A DNA stretch of 32,000 bases from Candidatus Saccharimonadota bacterium (lineage in GTDB: Bacteria; Patescibacteriota; Gracilibacteria; Absconditabacterales; Absconditicoccaceae): positions 510,001 through 542,000 of the forward strand of contig JAUIDC010000001.1 in NCBI GenBank assembly GCA_030429145.1, in the 5' to 3' direction. Below are positions 3-23,865 of this stretch, in pieces. Each line of letters starts with the position of its first letter. Position 1 is the first letter of the stretch. The position numbers were made by a program, and so were the translations under genes. A model generated the notes under the pieces. That model saw only the letters and a program-made list of their open reading frames with translations. It was not told the origin of the DNA and did no database searches.

Positions 3-692
3 TATGCACCAAGTGGTCTGTCAGGCGGTACTCACAAGTATCGTGCAATCTATACCATGCCAACCGGCTGTTACACTCAAGATAAAGATACAACTAACGA
101 AGTGTCTATTAGTGTGACAGAAGCACAGGCTTTCACTGCTTCTTTAGCAGGTACTGATGCTTTTGTGCAAGCAGGTGTGTGGAAAGGGCTTTATACCCTT
201 ACATTACCTGTCGGTTTGACAAGCTATACTGTAAAATGGTATCGTATCATCAATGGTCAGCCTGTTCTACAGACTACCTTGAACGATATAAAAACTTGGG
301 TACGTGATCCTTTGGATAACGACCACCCAGACACTGTTTACGCAGTGGTGATACCAAAAGGGTGTTGGGACAAAGATTCTACACTTACCAATCAGGTCAT
401 TGTGACCGCTTCGGTAAGTGTAGCCGCACTTCCCAAGCTGTCTGATGACTACCGCATATATCCTAACCCTGCAACTACCCAGTTATTCATAACCGGGTTG
501 AAGCGTGATGATCGTATGATCATGACCAATGCAGTTGGACAACAAGTTCTACAGTACACGTTTGTACAGGAGAATAATCCTACACAAATTAATCTGTCTG
601 GACTTCCCAACGGCATCTATATGGTGAGATTCATCTCTCATGATGGACAACCATACGCAGGAGGCGGAGCAAAAATAATCAAACAAGAGTAA
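3..692 (+). CDS. Secreted protein, 5' truncated by the window edge, ending in a T9SS (Por) C-terminal sorting domain
   Basis: The frame is open to the window start and ends in TAA. The C-terminal ~80 aa (YRIYPNPATTQLFITGL...INLSGLPNGIYMVRFISHDGQ) fit the Por_Secre_tail pattern (YPNPa...L.sGiY.v). No in-frame TGA. Confidence 0.7.
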   Translation, partial: YAPSGLSGGTHKYRAIYTMPTGCYTQDKDTTNEVSISVTEAQAFTASLAGTDAFVQAGVWKGLYTLTLPVGLTSYTVKWYRIINGQPVLQTTLNDIKTWVRDPLDNDHPDTVYAVVIPKGCWDKDSTLTNQVIVTASVSVAALPKLSDDYRIYPNPATTQLFITGLKRDDRMIMTNAVGQQVLQYTFVQENNPTQINLSGLPNGIYMVRFISHDGQPYAGGGAKIIKQE

Positions 693-882: not shown

Positions 883-1638
883 ATGCTAATTATCCTGCGT
901 CGAAATGCGAAGATGCACGCGTGCTGGGTTTTGATCCTGGCGGGCTGTGCAAAAACGGGATACGATGGAAAATATGGCGTTTCGCCTTTATCATCGCCCC
1001 AATTAATGCCCAATACAATAGGGAGTGAAATGAATCAACTTCCTAATGACATGGACTCTATCAACATTCATACTGTTAACGAAGATCAACCAGCAGAAAG
1101 TTATTCTGATAAAGCTGGTTCATATATTGATTCTTCACTTGCTCAGTCTATATTCCAAGATGTGTTTGCTCAGGGTGAAAACCTCTGGGGGAGCTATTTC
1201 ACTGACGGACAATTTGTGTATGCTCACATGGTTCGTCGGTATATAGAAAGCAAGTATAACATAGAGTGTAGAAAACTGTTCATATTTGGTGACATTACAG
1301 CAACCTCTTTACGGTATGATTGCTGTGCAACATGGAGTTATGATGTTGCCTGTGTCTTACTAGGGAAAGAAGGGCGTCTTTACGTCATCGATCCAAGGTT
1401 ATTTAACTCGGTAGTGTCAAAAGATGTTTGGATGCAAGCACATGTCTCACCAACAATGTGCGAGCCGTATCCGATCATCTCGACATCAGAGCTAGTCTCT
1501 GGGGAGAGTCTCTTCCCACTGGGTGGGCCATCACTAGGCTATAAAAAAGATCCTGACTATCAAGCTGCTGAAGCCTGGAAGGGCTACTATGCTGATAGCA
1601 CAGGGTGTGGCTGTGTGAATGCCCTCGCTGTAAAGTAA
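883..1638 (+). CDS. Lipoprotein homologous to protein-glutamine glutaminase (Chryseobacterium type), with catalytic residues substituted
   Basis: Lipobox signal peptide (MLIILRRNAKMHACWVLILAGC). The core FTDGQFVYAHMVRRY...CCATWSYDVACVLL...YVIDPRLF aligns with protein-glutaminase VDGCYARAHKMRQI...CCVAWSYHVAILV...RIIDPSLF (sequence recalled from memory). TAA stop. Confidence 0.6.
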   Translation: MLIILRRNAKMHACWVLILAGCAKTGYDGKYGVSPLSSPQLMPNTIGSEMNQLPNDMDSINIHTVNEDQPAESYSDKAGSYIDSSLAQSIFQDVFAQGENLWGSYFTDGQFVYAHMVRRYIESKYNIECRKLFIFGDITATSLRYDCCATWSYDVACVLLGKEGRLYVIDPRLFNSVVSKDVWMQAHVSPTMCEPYPIISTSELVSGESLFPLGGPSLGYKKDPDYQAAEAWKGYYADSTGCGCVNALAVK

Positions 1639-7071: not shown

Positions 7072-8260
7072 TCTCATCAACTGCTACAAAAAACTTGTCT
7101 ATATCATCTACGGTGTTATACAAATACAGGCTCATCCTACATGCGCCGTTTTTTTCTATATGCTGGAAAAATGGATGTGTACAATGTCCGCCACAACGTA
7201 TACAGATATTCTTTTGTGCCATACGTTCTCCTAGTTGTATATGGTTTGGAAATGATGGTATGACAAAAGAAAATACTCCAATTCTATCCTCGGCTGTTGT
7301 TGGTCAGAGAAGAGTTATCTTGTCTTTACGTTTAGCAAACTGTTCGAGAGCGTATTGTACAAGTGTGGACTCATATTGTTCTATGGCCTGGTAGCCTCAA
7401 ATCTTATTCATATATTCTATGGCTTTGAGTAATGACACGGCACCAATGATATGAGGCGTTCCTGGCTCAAATTTCTCCTCGCTTTTTTTAAGCTTGTAGT
7501 TGTCCGTGCTAACATCTTCGATACTACCGCCTCAGCCTATAGCAGGAGTCAGTTGTTCGTTTAGTTCTTTACCCAGATAGAGCATACCGATACCTGTGTC
7601 GGCCATCATCTTGTGTCCAGTTGCGATCAGCGCATCACATCAGATTTTTTTCACATCTACAGCGATATGTGGGAGCGCTTGTGAAGCATCTACAATCAAT
7701 AGAGTATCATCACGAAGTTTTTGAGAAATCTTTTTTATGTCATATATTTTTCACGTTACATTTGAAACCATTGAGAGAGAAACAACTTTTACATTGTCGC
7801 TATATTTTTTTTCAAAATCGACTTCGTCGAGATCATACTTTTCATCTATATTGATCCATTCTATTTCAATTCCTTCTAGCTTTGATGTCATTTGTCGAGG
7901 AACAATATTCGCATGATGCTCGGCAATGCCCAATAGTATTTTGTCACCCGCTTTTAGTTTTCCTGAAAGAGTAAGGGATTGGACGAGTATGTTAAATGCA
8001 TAGGTCGCATTATATGTATAAATGATCTCTGAGTGATGCGCATTGATGAGCGAAGCGAAAGCTCTCTTTGATGCCTCATACATTTCTTCTGACTGTTCAC
8101 TTATCTCATATGCTCCACGATGAATATTTGCATACGAGTTTTCCATAAAATCTTTCATACCATCTATAACCACTGAAGGCTTTTGTGCAGTCGCCGCACT
8201 GTCTAGGTAGATAAGATCAGGCTGCTTGGTGAACAACGGAAAGTCTTTTTTATAATTCAT
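7061..8260 (-). CDS. sufS: Cysteine desulfurase, SufS/NifS class V aminotransferase
   Basis: LDSAATAQKP, SNVTG, the PLP-lysine motif ATGHKM, and the catalytic loop RCGGHCTHP. I checked the frame codon by codon from 7751 to 7061. There are 5 in-frame TGAs (7751, 7640, 7532, 7397, 7304). TAG stop at 7061-7063. Confidence 0.85.
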
Positions 8261-8357
8261 ATGAGAGTGTTCTAGGATTAAATATTGATGTGGTTTTTTA
8301 CCTTTATTTTTATACTATGAGATCATTCAAATAGTATTTTATTCTTCTGAAATTGCA

Positions 8358-9209
8358 ATGCTTCGATATGGAAAGCCTGTGGCAGAAAAGATAGAGCAGA
8401 ATGTGAAACAATGGGTGGCTGACAACGAGATCCAATGGAGATACGTTGCTGCTATTATGATTGGGGAAGATCATCCAGGTAGTGCATACGTGCAGCGTAA
8501 GAAAAGTTTTGCGCAGAGGGTGTGATTGGATGTAAAAATTTTTGGTGATGAAAACAAGGAGTGGACAGAAGTAGACATCTTGCAAGTTATCGAAAAATGT
8601 AATCAAGATGATGAGTGTGTTGGTGTCATTGTGCAGCTACCATTGCCTGAATATCTTCATGATGCAAAGCAAAATATCTTAGATGCTATAGACCCTCATA
8701 AAGATATTGATGCGCTTGGTTCATGGCATCAGGAGAAAAAACTTTTGTTGCCTGCAACTCCACTAGCTGTGCTTCAAATGATTGGTCACTATGAGTACAA
8801 TGTGCAGTGAAAGAACATTGCTATGATAGGAGAGAGTAATCTTATTGGAAAGCCGTTGGCATTTGCTTTAGAGTATAAGTGAGCGTTGGTAAAAACATTT
8901 AATATCGAAAGTGATCAAGAAGAGATGAAAAAGTTTTGTCGCGATGAGGCAGACCTTATTATCTCTGCGACTGGACATATACATCTTGTTGATGAGAGCT
9001 TTGTTCGTGGTGATAACTCACAAGTAATTATAGATGTGGGTCGAGGGTATAAAGATAATAAACCTGTAGGAGATGTGCAGTGGGAAAATCTAGAAGATAA
9101 AGTAGCTGCTATCACTCCAGTGCCTTGAGGAGTGTGACCAGTGACAGTTGCATCATTGTTTGCTAATCTGATGCACGCAAAAAAAATTGCAGATAGAGAA
9201 CTTATTTAG
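8358..9209 (+). CDS. folD: Bifunctional methylenetetrahydrofolate dehydrogenase / methenyl-THF cyclohydrolase
   Basis: MLRYGKPVAEKI..., VGVIVQLPLP, DPHKDIDALG, and ITPVP-G-GV-G-PVTVA, where both TGAs (9126 and 9135) sit in the invariant PGGVGP motif. 5 in-frame TGAs in total. TAG stop. Confidence 0.85.
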
Positions 9210-18984: not shown

Positions 18985-19505
18985 TTTATCTCTTGAATGA
19001 TATTTTGAACCGCTTTTACTTCATAGTAGTGGCTGTCTCATTCATAGAAATGGCCAATGGTTTGTAATGATCCATTTGAAAAACACTGTGTCACTTCCTC
19101 TGGAGTCCCTGCAGGATCTTTTGTCTGTTGCACTATATGAATAGGTTGGTCGTAGGAAATCTCTTTGAGTGTCTTGGTCAGATCTCGTCCTAATGTCTCG
19201 GTGGCAAAGCGTATGGGAAACCCAGTAAACAGTACGAGGTCTGGTCTTAATTCAAAATGTTTCATTGCCTCGAGAGCAACAAGACATCCTGCAGATTTTG
19301 CGACAATTCCAATCTGTCTGTTATCCGGTAGAGAATCATATATTTTTTTTGCCTCATAACGGGTGTCTATTGACTTGCTTGTGTCCACCCGATGCTGATA
19401 GGTCCATGCGTTTACTTCAGAAAAATCAAAACTCAGAGCTCTGGCCAGCTCTTGTGTTCGCTCTTTGTTCGAGAGGCTATTGCCTCAGAGGAGGTAGAGG
19501 TGCAT
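18969..19505 (-). CDS. Alpha/beta-hydrolase-fold protein (small serine hydrolase, 178 aa)
   Basis: MHLYLLGGNS... (the oxyanion-type HG/GG region contains a TGA), a nucleophile-elbow-like AKSAG, and a C-terminal G-D-S-H region. Two in-frame TGAs (19476 and 19038). TAA stop at 18969. Confidence 0.5.
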
Positions 19506-19655
19506 GTGAAAGTGTCTTAAAACAACTATCTATGATATTAATGCTGTTCCTGTGATTTTAGGGAGAAACATCATGATAAGACTCAATGGCGAGAAATTCA
19601 AGTAAAAGCTCAAAATGATGATAACCATAAGTATACATAACTACTGGATATTGTG

Positions 19656-19683
19656 TTGAGTCGCCAATATCTTTGAATAGATT
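19656..19683 (+). promoter_or_regulatory. Possible promoter of the RiPP operon
   Basis: TTGAGT (19656-19661), a 16-nt spacer, then TAGATT (19678-19683), about 30 nt upstream of the precursor ATG. Weak match only. Confidence 0.3.
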
Positions 19684-19713
19684 AGAGATACTTTATCCTT
19701 AATCAATCTACTC

Positions 19714-19929
19714 ATGGTATTAAGACCACTTAACAATCCAAGCGATTCATTGGAAAAGGTTGTAGAAGATCTTAAAAAAAACTGAGTTGATGTTGTAGTA
19801 TACGAGGAAAAAAAAGAGATTGAAGATGTTTTTGCTTCTAAGTGTGACAATGGAGGGTCGTCTTCTGCAGCATGTGCCAATTCTCAGTCATGTGGAAGTT
19901 TCACTGAGGAAGTTACAAAAGCTGCATAA
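19714..19929 (+). CDS. Candidate RiPP precursor peptide (71 aa)
   Basis: MVLRPLNNPSDSLEKVVEDLKKN-G-VDVVVYEEKKEIEDVFASKCDNGGSSSAACANSQSCGSFTEEVTKAA. It has an acidic leader followed by a Cys/Ser/Gly-rich C-terminal segment with an internal GG. It lies immediately upstream of the peptidase/dehydrogenase/YcaO genes. One in-frame TGA (19783). TAA stop. Absent from the standard-code track, which shows only an antisense ORF here. Confidence 0.55.
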
Positions 19930-19944
19930 TTCGCAATTGCGATC

Positions 19945-19975
19945 AGGAGGCCTTTAGGCTTCCTTTTCTTTATTT
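19945..19975 (+). terminator. Attenuator / leaky terminator hairpin after the precursor gene
   Basis: 8-bp stem AGGAGGCC / GGCTTCCT (one G-U pair), loop TTTA, then the T-rich tract TTTCTTTATTT, positioned between the precursor and the first enzyme gene. Confidence 0.5.
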
Positions 19976-19994
19976 GTATTCATTTGCATCGTAG

Positions 19995-20741
19995 ATGGGA
20001 TATCCAAGATATAAAGAAAATCGAATGGTTGAAGCTACGCCAGGACAATGTAGTATAGCTGCCGTCATGTGAGTATTGAATTATTTTTGGTATACTGATT
20101 TCACGAAAAGAGATACGTGGGAAATGATGCAGATCATGAAAAAATGAGCGTATAGGTGGAATCAAGATGCTTTATTGACCGAGGAGGAGATAGCATTGAG
20201 GTTGGCTGAACACGGATTTGATATAAAGATTTTTTATTCTACGACAGAGGAAAAGCGAAGAGACTTTGTTGAGCACCCAACATGAGAGAAATATAAAGAA
20301 TTTTTGAAGCCTCAGTATCACAAATATGTAAAAGGTGATTATCGGGTAGATCCTAATAAGTGGGCAATTCATGAATGACATAGGAATACAGTCACAGACA
20401 CTTCTATTCACAAAAAACTTTTGCAAAATAAGAACGTCTCTATGGAGTGGTCTTCGTCAATAGGCAAACAGGTGAAAGCGTATCAAAATGATGGGGCCCT
20501 TTTTATTCTTTGACTTGACTCATATGTGTTGCACAAAAAGGAAAAGCCTGAGTGAGCTCCCCTTGGCTGACACATAGTCGTAACAACAGGCATAGAGGGT
20601 GGTCAGTTCAAAATTTTTGACCCGGGTCCTCCTTTGTGAAATGGATACCTTAAATCTCAGGACGTAGTAGAAGATGCAATAAAAGATCGGGGTGATTATA
20701 TGTTTATTCTCGTTAAAGAAAGGAATGCAGGAGCTGCTTAG
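19995..20741 (+). CDS. Standalone C39-like papain-fold cysteine peptidase (Peptidase_C39_2 type), putative leader peptidase
   Basis: Verified codon by codon: 248 aa with 8 in-frame TGAs (20070, 20145, 20283, 20376, 20511, 20553, 20568, 20637). Catalytic-type motifs are present: TPGQCSIAAVMGVLNYF (Cys codon 20049-20051) and GGHIVVTTGIEGGQFKIFDPG (His codon 20571-20573). TAG stop. Confidence 0.75.
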
Positions 20742-20772
20742 AATTAATAAGTTAGCTCACGTATATGCATAT

Positions 20773-21717
20773 ATGAACAGAATACATATTCGTACATATA
20801 AAAAGCATATTTCCGTGCCATTTAGTGAGTTAACTTATAGTACTCTCATAGAGTTGTGACAGATATATTGTTTTGAGAAATCAGAGGTGGAGTCGTCTCT
20901 AGGAAAACATGTAGTACGCCTCTTGTTAGAAGTAGGTTTCTTTATATCTGTACAGGATGGAAATAGTGGAGTTGAATCATGGGAGGCAGAGAGATATATG
21001 CATAATCCATCGCCCACTTTTACGCCTCTTGCGGATGCCCAGTTGAGATCTATATATAATTCATGAGAGTTATATATCGATTCACTGTGGTGAACTAGCC
21101 TAAAAGAGTATGAGTACATGCCGGTAGAGAGAGAAAATAGTAAATTAAATGACTATTTTGAGAACGTATGCTCTACAAGGTTTCTAAAGAAAGAAGATCT
21201 GCCAGAAGACATAAATGATATAGAACAACAAGGCTTGGCTTTGCTAAAAAATATTTTCTCTCCAAATGCACAAGGGCACTATAAGTATGGTAGTTGAGGT
21301 GGTTTATATTCTATTTTTCCTCTTTGCTTTACAAGACAAGATGTGCTATACTCTTATGATCATAGAAAAAAGAAATTTTTCTACAAAAAAATACCATGAC
21401 TTTATAACTGATTTATTCAAAATTGTCTTATAGGGGGTGCTGACAATGTGTTTTCAATGTATAATTTTTTTATCTTATTAGTTGCAGATACGAGAAGTGT
21501 ATATAAAAAATATGGTAATAGGGGGTTTAAACATTTTTATCTTGAGTCTTGAGCTATATGAGCTTTGATACGTTTGTTTTCCGCTGTTGCAGAGTACAAA
21601 CAAATAGAGTTGCAATGATATAGGGAAGAACCCATTTATAATGTATTGGAAGAGAGTCAGTTTTTCACTGGATTGGAAAATATTATGATAACTCATCTTT
21701 TAGCTTTGAGAATATAA
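20773..21717 (+). CDS. SagB-type (McbC-like) FMN-dependent azoline dehydrogenase, nitroreductase superfamily
   Basis: Verified codon by codon: 314 aa with 9 in-frame TGAs. Motifs are KYGS-G-GGLYSIFP (SagB PSGGGLYP-like, TGA at 21295) and RGFKHFYLES-G-AI-G-ALIRLFSAVAEY (lEaGh..Qn..L.A). TAA stop overlaps the next ATG (TAATG). Confidence 0.8.
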
Positions 21718-23237
21718 TGTTGTGGATAGTAGGTGATGAAATTCGTTGTTATGATAAAGAGAAGCAAAAGCTTTTGGAGGGTGATTCTAATGCTATTGCC
21801 GCGTATATAAGCTCTCATTTCGTAGAGTTATTTCAGAAAAATACTGTGGTAGATACATTTTGTTCAATAAACCAAGTGCTTGATGAGGATTGGCTTTTCT
21901 TTCATGTCATGAGAAAAAAGAGATTTATCGTTAGTGAAAAAATTGTAAGATATTATGGTGTTCAAAAAATAAAAGCTATCTTGGTAGACTTTGATCTTTG
22001 ACATTATAATAGAGAGTTAGAATGCGTACGCTTTTATGCAGAATGAGAAATATTCACAGAGTTTCAAACTATACATATTAAGGAAAAGAAAGATCTTTAT
22101 AGAGAAGGATTCCATACTCTCATACATCATCCTAGCAACTCTCAAATTTTTATAGCAGAGACTATTTTTTCATATGGATTAGGAAATTATAAAGGATGAA
22201 CAATCACGAATATAGGTTGATGAGTTGCTTCTACTCAGTCCTTGGCCAGAAAAAAATCTTTGTCAGAGGCCATAGAAAGATTAAATGGTAGCTTGGTTGT
22301 TTGAAGAGATTCTTCTGTATACAAAGATTGCGAACTGGATATGTCTTTCAGATGCCTCATTGAAAATCATGGTATCTATGTGTGACAAGAACTATTATGT
22401 AGAAAAGGAAAGACTCTCTTAGGAGGCAAAGCCCTCATTCCTGAAGAACTACTATTTTACCCATATGAAAAAGATAGATATGGTTATCCAGCTACATCTT
22501 CCGGTATGGCCACTCATGTAACCCTAAGGGAAGCCCTTGAAAACGCTCTTTTCGAAATAATAGAGAGAGATGCATTTTTGTTATTTCGATTGCTTAAGAA
22601 AGGTGGATATAAAATTGATCTATCCACTCTTAACGAGAATCACAAGGAGAGTATTGATAAGTTGGAAGCAGAATGACTTACTCTGAATATCATTTCCTTA
22701 CATTTTGACAATCCTGCGCCTGTCATATTATTGATGTGCAATAAAGGAAGAAGAACCATTATTGCACTTGGTGTTTCCTATTCTATACAAGAGGCTATAA
22801 GCAAGGCATTAAGAGAGATTTCCTATGCAAAGGTCTTTTTTACAAAGGAGCTAAAGAGTAATATAGAAGAATGAAGTGTACAGTTTCATACGCTTTCTTA
22901 TTTGCGTGAGAGTAGTTATCCGAAGGTGAGTTGGATATTAAAGTCCCCTGTTAAGACGCTTGGTTGGTTGGTAACTCAATTTCCAAGTTATAACCACTAT
23001 AGGCAAATTGCTCAACATTATCGCGCTATCGGAGTTGGGTTGTATTCCTATAGATACAGAAATATCATAAACGAAATATTTCATAGATTTACTGTCAGAG
23101 TGCTTTCTGATTCTTTATTACCTATTTATTTTAATAAAGAGATACCTAGGCACATTAAGGGAAGTAGAAGATTGGAAAAGCGGAAAGCAAAAATGAATGT
23201 AAAAAATCTAAATGAAGATGTTCATCCTTTGGGATAG
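21717..23237 (+). CDS. YcaO-domain cyclodehydratase (TOMM D-protein type) with a ~170-aa N-terminal extension
   Basis: 506 aa with 9 in-frame TGAs (21999, 22044, 22197, 22218, 22221, 22302, 22383, 22674, 22872). YcaO ATP/Mg motifs are present: IG-G-G-VASTQSLARKKSLSEAIERL (22257-22283), PATSSGMATHVTLREA (22491 onward) and ALFEIIERDAF (22545-22577). C-terminal ...DVHPLG. The frame was checked across 22002-22440. Confidence 0.85.
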
Positions 23238-23275
23238 AAAGATGGATCTGATGGAGAAAGATATTCTTAGTACGT

Positions 23276-23306
23276 AAAAAGCCGGACAGATATTCCGGCT
23301 TTTTTA
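23276..23306. terminator. Bidirectional rho-independent terminator
   Basis: AAAAA-AGCCGGA-cagatat-TCCGGCT-TTTTT, between the convergent YcaO gene and the 23326-23865 gene. Confidence 0.8.
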
Positions 23307-23325: not shown

Positions 23326-23865
23326 CTACCCAGTGTAGATTGGTCTTTTTTTTGCATCAAGGTAGGAACTTTGCTTTTCGTGAGGAGTTGGCTCAAGCTC
23401 CAACTGGAGCTTGTTTTCCCATTCTGATTCGGCCATCATGAAACTTCGTCGTGCTGGTGTCTCCTTGCAACGACACCCAAGCGTGTACATTACAGAGTTG
23501 TCCTCCATGTTATATTTATGTACTTTTGGGAGTTCATCACATAGTACACATGGGTACACTTGGTCTTCAGAGAGTAGGTTAAATAATTTCCTTACCCTTT
23601 TCAGTATCGCTTCGGAATTTGCAGGATCGCTATACATAGCAGGATTAGTTAAGTCCCTCGGAATGTAGTAGTACAAGAATTCCTTATTGTCAGGTCTGCG
23701 GAATTGCTCACTAATATCTCCGCAGGAACAATGAATTCCCATCTCCTTGAAAAGAGCTATTAGTGTTGCAAATTCACTTACTGCCGATTCATCCTCCTGA
23801 ACAAATGCAATAAGATGGTCCTTTAAAAGATCTTGCATCTTTTTTGTATCCATAGTTGTTTCCAT
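23326..23865 (-). CDS. Hypothetical Cys-rich protein (179 aa), possible zinc-binding
   Basis: Uninterrupted ORF with a TAG stop. Cys pairs are HCSCG, CVLCDE and GCRC. I recognise no family. Convergent with the RiPP operon. Confidence 0.5.
   Translation of the reverse strand: METTMDTKKMQDLLKDHLIAFVQEDESAVSEFATLIALFKEMGIHCSCGDISEQFRRPDNKEFLYYYIPRDLTNPAMYSDPANSEAILKRVRKLFNLLSEDQVYPCVLCDELPKVHKYNMEDNSVMYTLGCRCKETPARRSFMMAESEWENKLQLELEPTPHEKQSSYLDAKKRPIYTG

Follow-up and report, generated by a model that had tools for sequence, protein, structure and literature searches.

The window analysed here, a stretch of 32,000 nucleotides, corresponds to positions 510,001–542,000 of contig JAUIDC010000001.1 (assembly GCA_030429145.1) from a bacterium of the Absconditabacterales (Gracilibacteria). 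Between positions 19656 and 23306 of the window, there is a compact gene cluster that is predicted to make a ribosomally synthesised and post-translationally modified peptide (RiPP) bearing azol(in)e rings. In the standard code (table 11), this segment yields only open reading frames (ORFs) of 41–111 aa, ten on each strand, and its longest stop-free run of 120 codons is near chance level (shuffle mean, 95). When only TAA and TAG are taken as stops, the + strand resolves into four close-packed co-directional genes that span 98% of 19714–23237, and the longest open run extends to 531 codons, compared with a maximum of 279 in 500 shuffles. The four genes hold 27 in-frame TGA codons (1 + 8 + 9 + 9). 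An earlier note on this DNA had described the standard-code ORFs as short and mostly antisense; the shortness stands, but the antisense bias does not, as sense and antisense ORFs are equal in number.

The four genes all lie on the + strand. The first (19714–19929) encodes a 71-aa precursor peptide with one TGA codon and with homology to 10 precursors elsewhere. It is followed by a stem-loop with a T-run (19945–19974, + strand), which was found by a scan and is a candidate attenuator or partial terminator. The second gene (19995–20741; 248 aa, eight TGA codons) encodes a papain-fold (C39-like) cysteine peptidase candidate, and the third (20725–21717; 330 aa, nine TGA codons) encodes a predicted flavin mononucleotide (FMN)-type azoline dehydrogenase of the SagB/McbC/BmdC type, preceded by a domain resembling a RiPP recognition element (RRE). 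The fourth (21717–23237; 506 aa, nine TGA codons) encodes a predicted YcaO-domain ATP-dependent cyclodehydratase, and its start overlaps the dehydrogenase stop in a TAATG. Upstream, a divergent intergenic region (19506–19713, no strand assigned) separates the cluster from an alpha/beta hydrolase-like gene (18969–19505, − strand). This region is presumed from its position between the flanking genes to hold the promoter; a consensus promoter scan of 19506–19713 gave no candidate above chance. Downstream, a bidirectional intrinsic terminator at the operon end (23276–23304, no strand assigned) consists of an 11-bp stem with an A-run and a T-run on its sides (A5-stem-T6), and a convergent gene (23326–23865, − strand) lies past it. 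The four packed genes, the TAATG overlap, and the divergent region and bidirectional terminator that bracket the operon had all been proposed before and are confirmed by the TAA/TAG-only ORF calls and by the features at these positions, while the hairpin between the peptide and peptidase genes had been missed.

The sequence evidence shows that TGA is read as Gly (table 25) in this genome. Of the 27 large complete ORFs listed for the window, every one is closed by TAA or TAG and none by TGA, and most hold in-frame TGA. In particular, TGA codons fall on conserved Gly positions of housekeeping proteins. Residue 270 of the alanyl-tRNA synthetase AlaRS (ERITMAVQ[G], the TGA-encoded residue in brackets) aligns to a Gly of PDB 9jc7, and conserved Gly residues of RNase HII (DEAGR[G]P) and FolD (PVP[G]GV[G]P) are likewise encoded by TGA. 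Furthermore, in the three protein families of the cluster, alignment columns with TGA in one member carry GGN 308 times and TGG once in the other members. The code is taken to be table 25 and not table 4 because TGA columns match GGN and conserved housekeeping Gly; these two observations bear out the UGA = Gly recoding claimed in the earlier note. Table 4, in which TGA encodes Trp, is ruled out by the 308 GGN against one TGG together with the conserved Gly in AlaRS, FolD and RNase HII. No tRNA, whether a suppressor, a Gly-UCA tRNA or any other, and no Rfam family was found within the 32-kb window.

The recoding has consequences for database searches. The YcaO and dehydrogenase proteins of the window are stored in a public protein collection (as P0001 and P0006, respectively) with Trp at each TGA. 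More generally, the recoded-genome proteins P0001–P0030 are stored as table 4 translations, for example with YWSWWWFYS in place of YGSGGGFYS. Such storage of Trp for Gly lowers family-model scores and hampers word-based searches; in a word-indexed protein search, a profile of the concatenated peptidase and dehydrogenase retrieved the dehydrogenase of the window and nothing else.

At least 13 further loci, each in a TGA-recoded member of the Patescibacteria (Absconditabacterales and relatives), carry the gene set of the cluster. The earlier note had pointed to other Gracilibacteria/Absconditabacteria genomes as places where the block might recur, and it is indeed found there. The relatives were gathered by a YcaO search, which gave four relatives at 32–36% identity, by scans of GTDB genomes and JGI metagenomes, and from dehydrogenase homologues, which added two more loci; the adjacency of the peptidase, dehydrogenase and YcaO genes was judged by local HMM searches of table-25 ORFs. 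The three enzyme genes are adjacent in L001/L008 (an Absconditabacterales metagenome-assembled genome, MAG), L002–5/L020–21, L006–7/L024, L009 (Absconditabacterales), L010, L011/L022, L012 (labelled Peribacteria), L018, L019, L023, L025, L026 and L030 (fragmented), L032, and L033. The gene order is not fixed: L006 has peptidase–YcaO–dehydrogenase, and YcaO also precedes the dehydrogenase in L010. Identity to the window proteins is 26–52% in the four loci that were aligned, and retention of the gene set at this divergence indicates that selection has kept all of its genes.

When the dehydrogenase was searched exhaustively with phmmer against a set of 1.84 billion representative proteins, 25 sequences were obtained in total, and no cluster member outside TGA-recoded genomes was among them. 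Specifically, 23 of the 25 have Trp at Gly positions, as expected from TGA called as Trp, and the other two come from loci with in-frame TGA. The cluster thus appears, on sequence grounds, to be a small lineage-restricted family confined to TGA-recoded genomes. The GC content of the cluster is 35.2%, compared with 40.5–41.3% in the window flanks, and its neighbouring genes differ at every locus; the low GC content and the changing neighbours together suggest a mobile unit that moves among genomes with the same code.

An extended subgroup (L011, L012, L018, L019, L022, L026 and L030) has, in addition, a CxxxCxxC protein and a methyltransferase-like protein, and the window represents the minimal four-gene version. 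The two extra genes come after the YcaO gene (7354–9475 in L011, 7366–9515 in L012, and likewise in L018, L019 and L022). The first encodes a radical-SAM-like protein of 373–379 aa with the CxxxCxxC motif (FGCTKGCFFCGC), and the second encodes a protein of 335–343 aa with a methyltransferase-like VFEVGCGGG motif; neither has a Pfam match at E ≤ 0.01. A more distant locus, L013 (5821–8608, Patescibacteria bacterium KatS3mg091), has a shorter YcaO (406 aa) and a dehydrogenase of 250 aa in which the N-terminal domain is missing; the next gene encodes 260 aa. The family-HMM E-values at this locus are 9e-11 and 1e-15, and L013 may represent a different type of azole-peptide cluster in another lineage of the candidate phyla radiation (CPR).

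The window precursor is composed of a leader, a core (CDNGGSSSAACANSQSCGS) and a C-terminal tail, FTEEVTKAA. Eleven homologous precursors were recovered in all, from the window and 10 related loci, each encoded directly upstream of the peptidase gene; these homologues back the 71-aa Cys/Ser/Gly-rich peptide at 19714–19929, noticed previously, as the precursor. The leaders have in common the motif L..L.(E/D)LKK.G(V/I).(V/I).(I/V)(E), followed by a short spacer, and in the window leader this corresponds to an amphipathic stretch and then a strand-like G-V-x-V-x-V, which reads G-V-D-V-V-V. All 11 precursors have a core rich in Gly, Ser and Cys, for example CRGGGGGSCSGACGQGGGGGC in L009 and L023 and SGGSGQGGGGGSGGGSGGGC in L006, and Gly-Gly or Ala-Gly stands before most of the cores. 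An acidic tail ending in (K/L/M)AA is found in seven of the 11 precursors; those of L002, L006, L032 and L033 have no KAA tail, and the peptidase is still kept at these loci. The invariant leader Gly is encoded by TGA in the window, where it is the precursor's single TGA, and in four other loci, and by GGN in six; core Gly codons across the family are often TGA.

The stem-loop between the precursor and peptidase genes (19945–19964) has an 8-bp stem with five G-C pairs and is followed by TTTCTTTATT. A hairpin with a T-run is located 3′ of the precursor gene in all nine loci checked; its sequence differs from locus to locus, and the z-scores of the fold lie between −2.5 and −7.1. A hairpin after the precursor gene is a common arrangement for producing more precursor than enzyme.

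The YcaO protein is the most readily recognised component of the cluster. Translated with table 25, it matches PF02624 with E = 7e-22 and 78.5 bits (gathering score, 25.7), which bears out the YcaO call of the earlier note at 21717–23237. The family profile matches the solved YcaOs MJ1094, MusD, TruD, LynD and McbD (E = 9e-4 for McbD), with MJ1094 as the best PDB sequence match. Among NCBIfam models, the top match is TIGR03604 (SagD family, E = 1.3e-25), followed by TIGR03266 of the McrA-thioamidation YcaOs (E = 1.2e-12). The acidic motifs S183-E184-x-x-E187-R188 and E280-x-x-E283-R284-D285 are invariant in seven YcaO members and align to MJ1094; in the YcaO family, these motifs bind ATP and Mg. 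The identity of this protein, as read from sequence, is thus unambiguous. Its N-terminal extension of ~90–150 aa is conserved in the family, and no domain was detected in the N-terminus in NCBIfam (E ≤ 1) or among PDB sequences (E ≤ 10). The family C-terminus reads (H/Q)-P-(L/F/V/M)-G, with Pro504 and Gly506 alone invariant, and the TIGR03604 alignment reaches the end of the model.

The dehydrogenase was identified from its family. A Pfam scan of the window protein gave no match, while TIGR03605 matches 13 of the 25 family members, with a best E of 1.5e-7. A profile of four sequences matches, in the PDB, the SagB-like nitroreductase 3eo7 (3e-8), the thiazoline oxidase BmdC (1e-5) and McbC (0.26). 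K262 and Y263, numbered in the 330-aa protein, do not vary across the 25 sequences and align to the K-Y of BmdC ‘PKYG’, and S150-x-R152, where the oxidase domain starts, is nearly invariant. In McbC, the Lys-Tyr pair deprotonates the azoline (PMC6395948). The AlphaFold2 model computed from the 25 sequences has a predicted local distance difference test score (pLDDT) of 87.2 and a predicted template modelling score of 0.83. A Foldseek search of the PDB with this model returned BmdC (5e-10), ThcOx (2e-8) and McbC (6e-5), then generic nitroreductases, with LynD as a weak match; the alignments to BmdC and ThcOx span the full length (370–380 columns). Profile, dyad and model together secure the prediction of an FMN-type azoline oxidase of the SagB/McbC/BmdC kind.

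In the model, the dehydrogenase is composed of an RRE-like domain, a low-confidence linker of about 40 residues around 130–160, and a nitroreductase-fold domain. The N-terminal ~75 residues are modelled with the winged-helix layout of an RRE (PqqD-like winged helix-turn-helix, wHTH), with strands at 4–7, 12–16, 19–23 and 28–32, helices at 35–45, 52–59 and 61–70, and a pLDDT of 92–96. A profile of this region gave no sequence-level match among PDB sequences, and hhalign detected no similarity between the N-terminal profiles of the dehydrogenase and YcaO. BmdC has the same size (about 330 aa) and architecture, comprising an RRE-like domain, a wrapping loop and an oxidase domain (PMC8795117). The domain also bears on the start of the gene, for which 20692, 20725 and 20773 are the in-frame options. 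The earlier note had placed the start at 20773; the ATG at 20725, 48 nt upstream, is most likely the actual start, because the first strand of the RRE-like domain is encoded upstream of 20773. Consistent with this, the 16 extra residues align with the M-x-RINK/RYN… N-termini of homologues and form a confidently modelled first beta-strand, and the database entry P0006 starts at the 20725 position. With this start, the dehydrogenase gene overlaps the peptidase stop by 17 nt.

The peptidase is the weakest of the gene identities, and we describe it, from its sequence features, as a papain-fold C39-type candidate. PF13529 (Peptidase_C39_2) is the recurrent best match in five of eight members, always below threshold, and PF03412 matches one of the eight at 0.019; peptidase profiles gave no match among PDB sequences or in NCBIfam. 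In an alignment of eight sequences with 31–52% identity, C19, H193 and D209 are invariant and follow the order Cys/His/Asp(Asn). Specifically, Cys19 sits in a P-G-x-C-S that heads a hydrophobic stretch (PGQCSIAAVMGVLNYF), with Cys19-Ser20 invariant, and Gly192-His193 and, 16 residues beyond the His, Asp209-x-Gly-Pro are also invariant. The His-Asp spacing presumably fits that of the ComA peptidase domain. The position of Asp209 is occupied by Glu in the peptidase of L032. The peptidase gene adjoins the precursor gene throughout the loci, and L011 has two tandem peptidase paralogues.

Taken together, the sequence and model evidence suggests that the cluster is a functional azol(in)e RiPP operon of the thiazole/oxazole-modified microcin (TOMM) or linear azol(in)e-containing peptide (LAP) type in a TGA = Gly bacterium of the Gracilibacteria/Absconditabacteria branch, a reading to which we assign a probability of about three in four. 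The operon is intact, and from it we infer the chemistry and the product. Confidence in the individual recognition and cleavage steps is considerably less than that in a RiPP cluster as a whole.

A possible pathway can be outlined as follows. The hairpin after the precursor gene, which is conserved in position, would stop part of the transcripts, such that the precursor transcript is made in excess. The leader may then dock on the RRE-like domain of the dehydrogenase, on the N-terminal extension of YcaO, or on both. YcaO, using ATP, would cyclodehydrate Cys and probably some Ser residues of CDNGGSSSAACANSQSCGS to thiazolines and oxazolines, and the FMN dehydrogenase, whose fold and Lys-Tyr dyad are seen in the model and alignment, would oxidise the azolines to azoles through that dyad. 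The papain-like Cys/His/Asp enzyme could cut off the leader, with the end of the Gly-Gly or Ala-Gly before the core as a possible cleavage site, and might also remove the C-terminal …KAA follower. The pathway would be expected to yield a linear azole peptide similar to microcin B17, the likeness in composition being clearest in the cores of relatives (GGGGGSCSGACGQGGGGGC), and this peptide would most likely serve as an antibacterial or host-directed toxin.

Several observations weigh against this interpretation. First, three curated models score below their cut-offs in the window proteins: TIGR03604 gives YcaO 90.1 bits (cut-off, 219.25), TIGR03605 gives the dehydrogenase alone 21.5 bits with E = 1.3e-4 (cut-off, 78.4), and Peptidase_C39_2 gives the peptidase 19.5 bits with E = 0.0015 (gathering score, 24). 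The claims of a SagB-type FMN dehydrogenase and a C39-like peptidase, both made at the outset, hold up with different strength: the former on profile, dyad and model but not on the score of the single sequence, and the latter on the triad invariant in eight sequences but not on the family model. Second, a Pro-rich (PxPxP-type) C-terminal motif is regarded as necessary in TOMM YcaOs, and in the window YcaO it appears to be reduced to H-P-L-G. The AlphaFold2 model of YcaO, computed from five sequences, has a pLDDT of 45.5 and is too poor for reading the N-terminal extension. Third, the window core is less Gly-rich than those of its relatives, and its Cys residues are not preceded by Gly. Fourth, no E1-like (SagC/McbB, TIGR03882) or ocin-ThiF-like partner was detected in the cluster or in the 32-kb window, and the Pfam-annotated neighbourhoods of L001, L002 and L032 likewise contain no E1-/ThiF-like partner. 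Characterised azoline-forming YcaOs work with an RRE-bearing protein of the E1-like or ocin-ThiF-like kind (PMC6395948; PMC7470986). The sole recognisable RRE-like domain of the cluster is that on the dehydrogenase, where it may bind the leader. Dehydrogenase-fused RREs occur in cyanobactin, LAP and thiopeptide clusters and are suspected to be vestigial (PMC7470986), and by analogy the RRE-like domain here may be vestigial too. Fifth, no recognisable transporter or immunity gene lies beside the operon. Finally, some relatives may be degenerating. L009 carries a stop inside the YcaO gene, and in L001 (MAG GCA_038211735), the 10 kb on either side hold no detectable precursor gene and the region 8100–8470 has no ATG, GTG or TTG at the position of the homologues' peptidase start, where it reads …ATA GAC TAC…; the L001 cluster may be decaying. 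These departures and the sub-threshold scores set the cluster apart from ordinary membership of a known TOMM kind.

The departures can be combined into a fuller account, which is tentative and, as a whole, rather doubtful. It holds that the synthetase works without an E1/ThiF-like partner, that recognition is taken over by the dehydrogenase RRE, a new N-terminal domain of YcaO, or both, and that leader and KAA follower are both processed by the standalone papain-like enzyme, with possible cyclisation. Episymbiotic or predatory TGA-recoded Patescibacteria would employ the product, a toxin resembling microcin B17, against hosts or competitors. As many Gly residues are encoded by TGA, even within the peptide core, expression would be limited to organisms with the same code, amounting to a genetic firewall.

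A separate alternative is that the papain-like protein acts, also or instead, on the C-terminal follower (…E-x-K-A-A), either trimming it or transpeptidating it to give a cyanobactin-like, head-to-tail cyclised azole peptide. The acidic stretch and (K/L/M)AA ending downstream of the core in seven of 11 precursors, the tandem peptidase paralogues in L011, and the place of the cyanobactin oxidase ThcOx among the best full-length structural matches to the dehydrogenase are compatible with such a role, and cysteine-protease folds such as sortases and asparaginyl endopeptidases can transpeptidate. However, the four precursors that end without a KAA tail (L002, L006, L032 and L033) are nevertheless accompanied by the peptidase, and the papain-like fold of the enzyme is a prediction for which no PDB or NCBIfam match was obtained. 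We consider this alternative unlikely.

It is also conceivable that the cluster makes a RiPP in which YcaO performs backbone thioamidation or amidine (macrolactamidine) formation, as in thioamitide- or bottromycin-like pathways, and azoles are not the final product. Thioamide- and amidine-forming YcaOs are the known cases that work without an E1-like or ThiF-like partner, and such a partner is missing from the cluster and the window. The TIGR03604 score below cut-off, the second place of TIGR03266, and the archaeal thioamidation-type MJ1094 as best PDB sequence match point in the same direction. Against this, an azoline-specific oxidase with an invariant Lys-Tyr dyad, which has no role in thioamide or amidine pathways, is adjacent and co-conserved in every locus. 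Furthermore, no TfuA gene is present, the cores are Cys/Ser-rich as in LAPs, and TIGR03604 is still the top NCBIfam model. Another YcaO chemistry is therefore quite unlikely. The least probable alternative, to which we give very little weight, is that the cluster was acquired horizontally and is now a decaying or non-expressed remnant, whose frames owe their openness to recent acquisition alone: the GC content (35% against 41% in the flanks), L001 without a precursor, L009 with a stop in YcaO, and the fragmented L026 and L030 would fit it, but it is opposed by four intact frames over 3.5 kb at 35% GC with a 531-codon run beyond the shuffle maximum of 279, by the kept catalytic residues, and by a gene set retained at 26–52% identity, which requires long-term purifying selection; the quality of the assemblies may also account for the fragmented loci (the coverage of L009 is 1x).

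The reading as an azol(in)e RiPP operon would have several implications. The Patescibacteria, or CPR, have tiny genomes and are thought to be poor in specialised metabolism, and some members of the Gracilibacteria/Absconditabacteria branch kill their hosts. A conserved and selected RiPP operon in these bacteria is a candidate effector against a host or competitor. The cluster is hidden by the wrong code, vanishing in table 11 or being mistranslated with Trp for Gly, which represents a systematic blind spot in genome mining. It also provides a natural test case for an azoline-forming YcaO without an E1-like or ThiF-like partner, and for a functional RRE fused to a dehydrogenase. As the Gly-rich Cys/Ser cores are similar to microcin B17, a poison of DNA gyrase, the products are plausible antibacterial leads; heterologous expression requires the recoding of every TGA.

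Outside the cluster, the window is otherwise ordinary chromosome. It encodes an HflX-like GTPase, a sigma factor, a cysteine desulfurase-type aminotransferase, FolD, RNase HII, an NhaA-type antiporter, an ATP synthase operon, an RNHCP protein, a TraG/VirD4-like ATPase, AlaRS, LytR, and DNA polymerase III delta. The flanking hydrolase, a 179-aa Cys-rich protein and the TraG-like ATPase of the window were not found near other clusters. The sole recurring neighbour is the RNHCP-domain (zinc-ribbon) gene, which lies at 16150–16473 (+ strand), 3.2 kb upstream of the cluster, and has relatives (E about 1e-45) just downstream of the extended clusters in L011 (10049–10378), L022 (6559–6888), L026 and L030; this recurrence could be coincidental or could mark a conserved neighbour. 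Between the RNHCP gene and the upstream neighbour of the cluster lies the gene for the TraG/VirD4-like coupling ATPase (16510–18960, + strand; 816 aa), with matches to TrwB_AAD_bind, DUF87 and TraG-D_C.

The ATP synthase operon (11726–15576) contains the genes for a, c and b, a gene in the delta position without a Pfam match, and the gene for alpha, where it ends; a small membrane protein and the RNHCP gene come next, and no gamma, beta or epsilon gene follows. The c subunit (12596–13048, + strand) is a tandem duplication of 150 aa with two helical hairpins of ~75 aa (self-alignment score, 167), both of which keep the ion-binding Glu (VESAAIYG and IESIAIYG). Near the start of the window, the protein encoded at 57–692 (+ strand) carries at its C-terminus a sorting domain of type IX secretion (Por_Secre_tail, E = 7e-11), which is typical of Bacteroidota and unexpected in Patescibacteria, and the gene at 883–1638 (+ strand) encodes a Gln_deamidase_2 domain. 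Neither gene contains a TGA codon, the GC content of both is slightly raised (43–44%), and horizontal acquisition or an assembly join is possible.

As to previously known systems, the earlier note knew of no characterised cluster of this kind from a code-25 organism; in agreement with this, a non-exhaustive search of open-access text on YcaO and RiPP clusters in Gracilibacteria, Absconditabacteria or code 25 gave no description of the cluster family, nor of a characterised RiPP cluster of any type in an organism using code 25. One survey reports YcaO-type antiSMASH matches in CPR generally (PMC12153355).

The microcin B17 system (McbBCD/McbA) likewise combines a YcaO and an FMN dehydrogenase carrying a Lys-Tyr dyad with a Gly/Ser/Cys-rich core. 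Cores of relatives such as GGGGGSCSGACGQGGGGGC look McbA-like. McbD and McbC are matched by the family profiles and the model, although the sequence similarity is very low (E = 9e-4 and 0.26, respectively). Microcin B17 has the E1-like, RRE-bearing McbB and the export and immunity genes McbEFG, none of which has a counterpart here. The leader peptidase would be cluster-encoded and papain-like here, whereas microcin B17 uses the host TldD/E. McbC is devoid of an N-terminal domain (PMC8795117), in contrast to the dehydrogenase here with its RRE-like domain. The streptolysin S system (SagBCD) and related TOMM clusters share with the cluster the pattern of a precursor followed by enzymes, and the SagB and SagD models are the best NCBIfam matches here; however, the scores are far below the cut-offs, and there is no SagC (TIGR03882/TIGR03603), no CaaX-type SagE protease and no ABC transporter.

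For the dehydrogenase, the closest parallel is BmdC of the bacillamide nonribosomal peptide synthetase (NRPS) pathway, which has the same ~330-aa size and the same order of wHTH domain, long linker and nitroreductase-fold oxidase. BmdC works on a dipeptide bound to the NRPS, and the RRE of BmdC is regarded as a relic (PMC8795117), while a cognate leader peptide exists here. The ThcOx/PatG oxidases of cyanobactins have the same two-part order, except that ThcOx has two RRE-like domains; it works beside an E1-YcaO heterocyclase with its own RRE, whereas no other RRE-bearing protein is recognisable here. As for YcaO, the partner-independent systems (bottromycin BotC/BotCD and archaeal McrA thioamidation) likewise have no E1-/ThiF-like gene nearby, but they have no azoline dehydrogenase acting on multiple Cys/Ser, and the YcaO here has an extra conserved N-terminal region.

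The peptidase candidate shares with the C39 and C39_2 peptidases the order Cys…His…Asp, with a GGH-hydrophobic strand, 16 residues and D-P-G-P here, and Gly-Gly or Ala-Gly stands before most of the presumed substrates' cores. It differs from them in a ~70–95-residue insertion between the Cys and His regions and in being free of an ABC-transporter fusion, and the canonical spacing of C39 double-glycine leaders is missing from the leaders here. The cluster would thus use a standalone papain-like peptidase in place of the usual CaaX, TldD/E or transporter-fused proteases.

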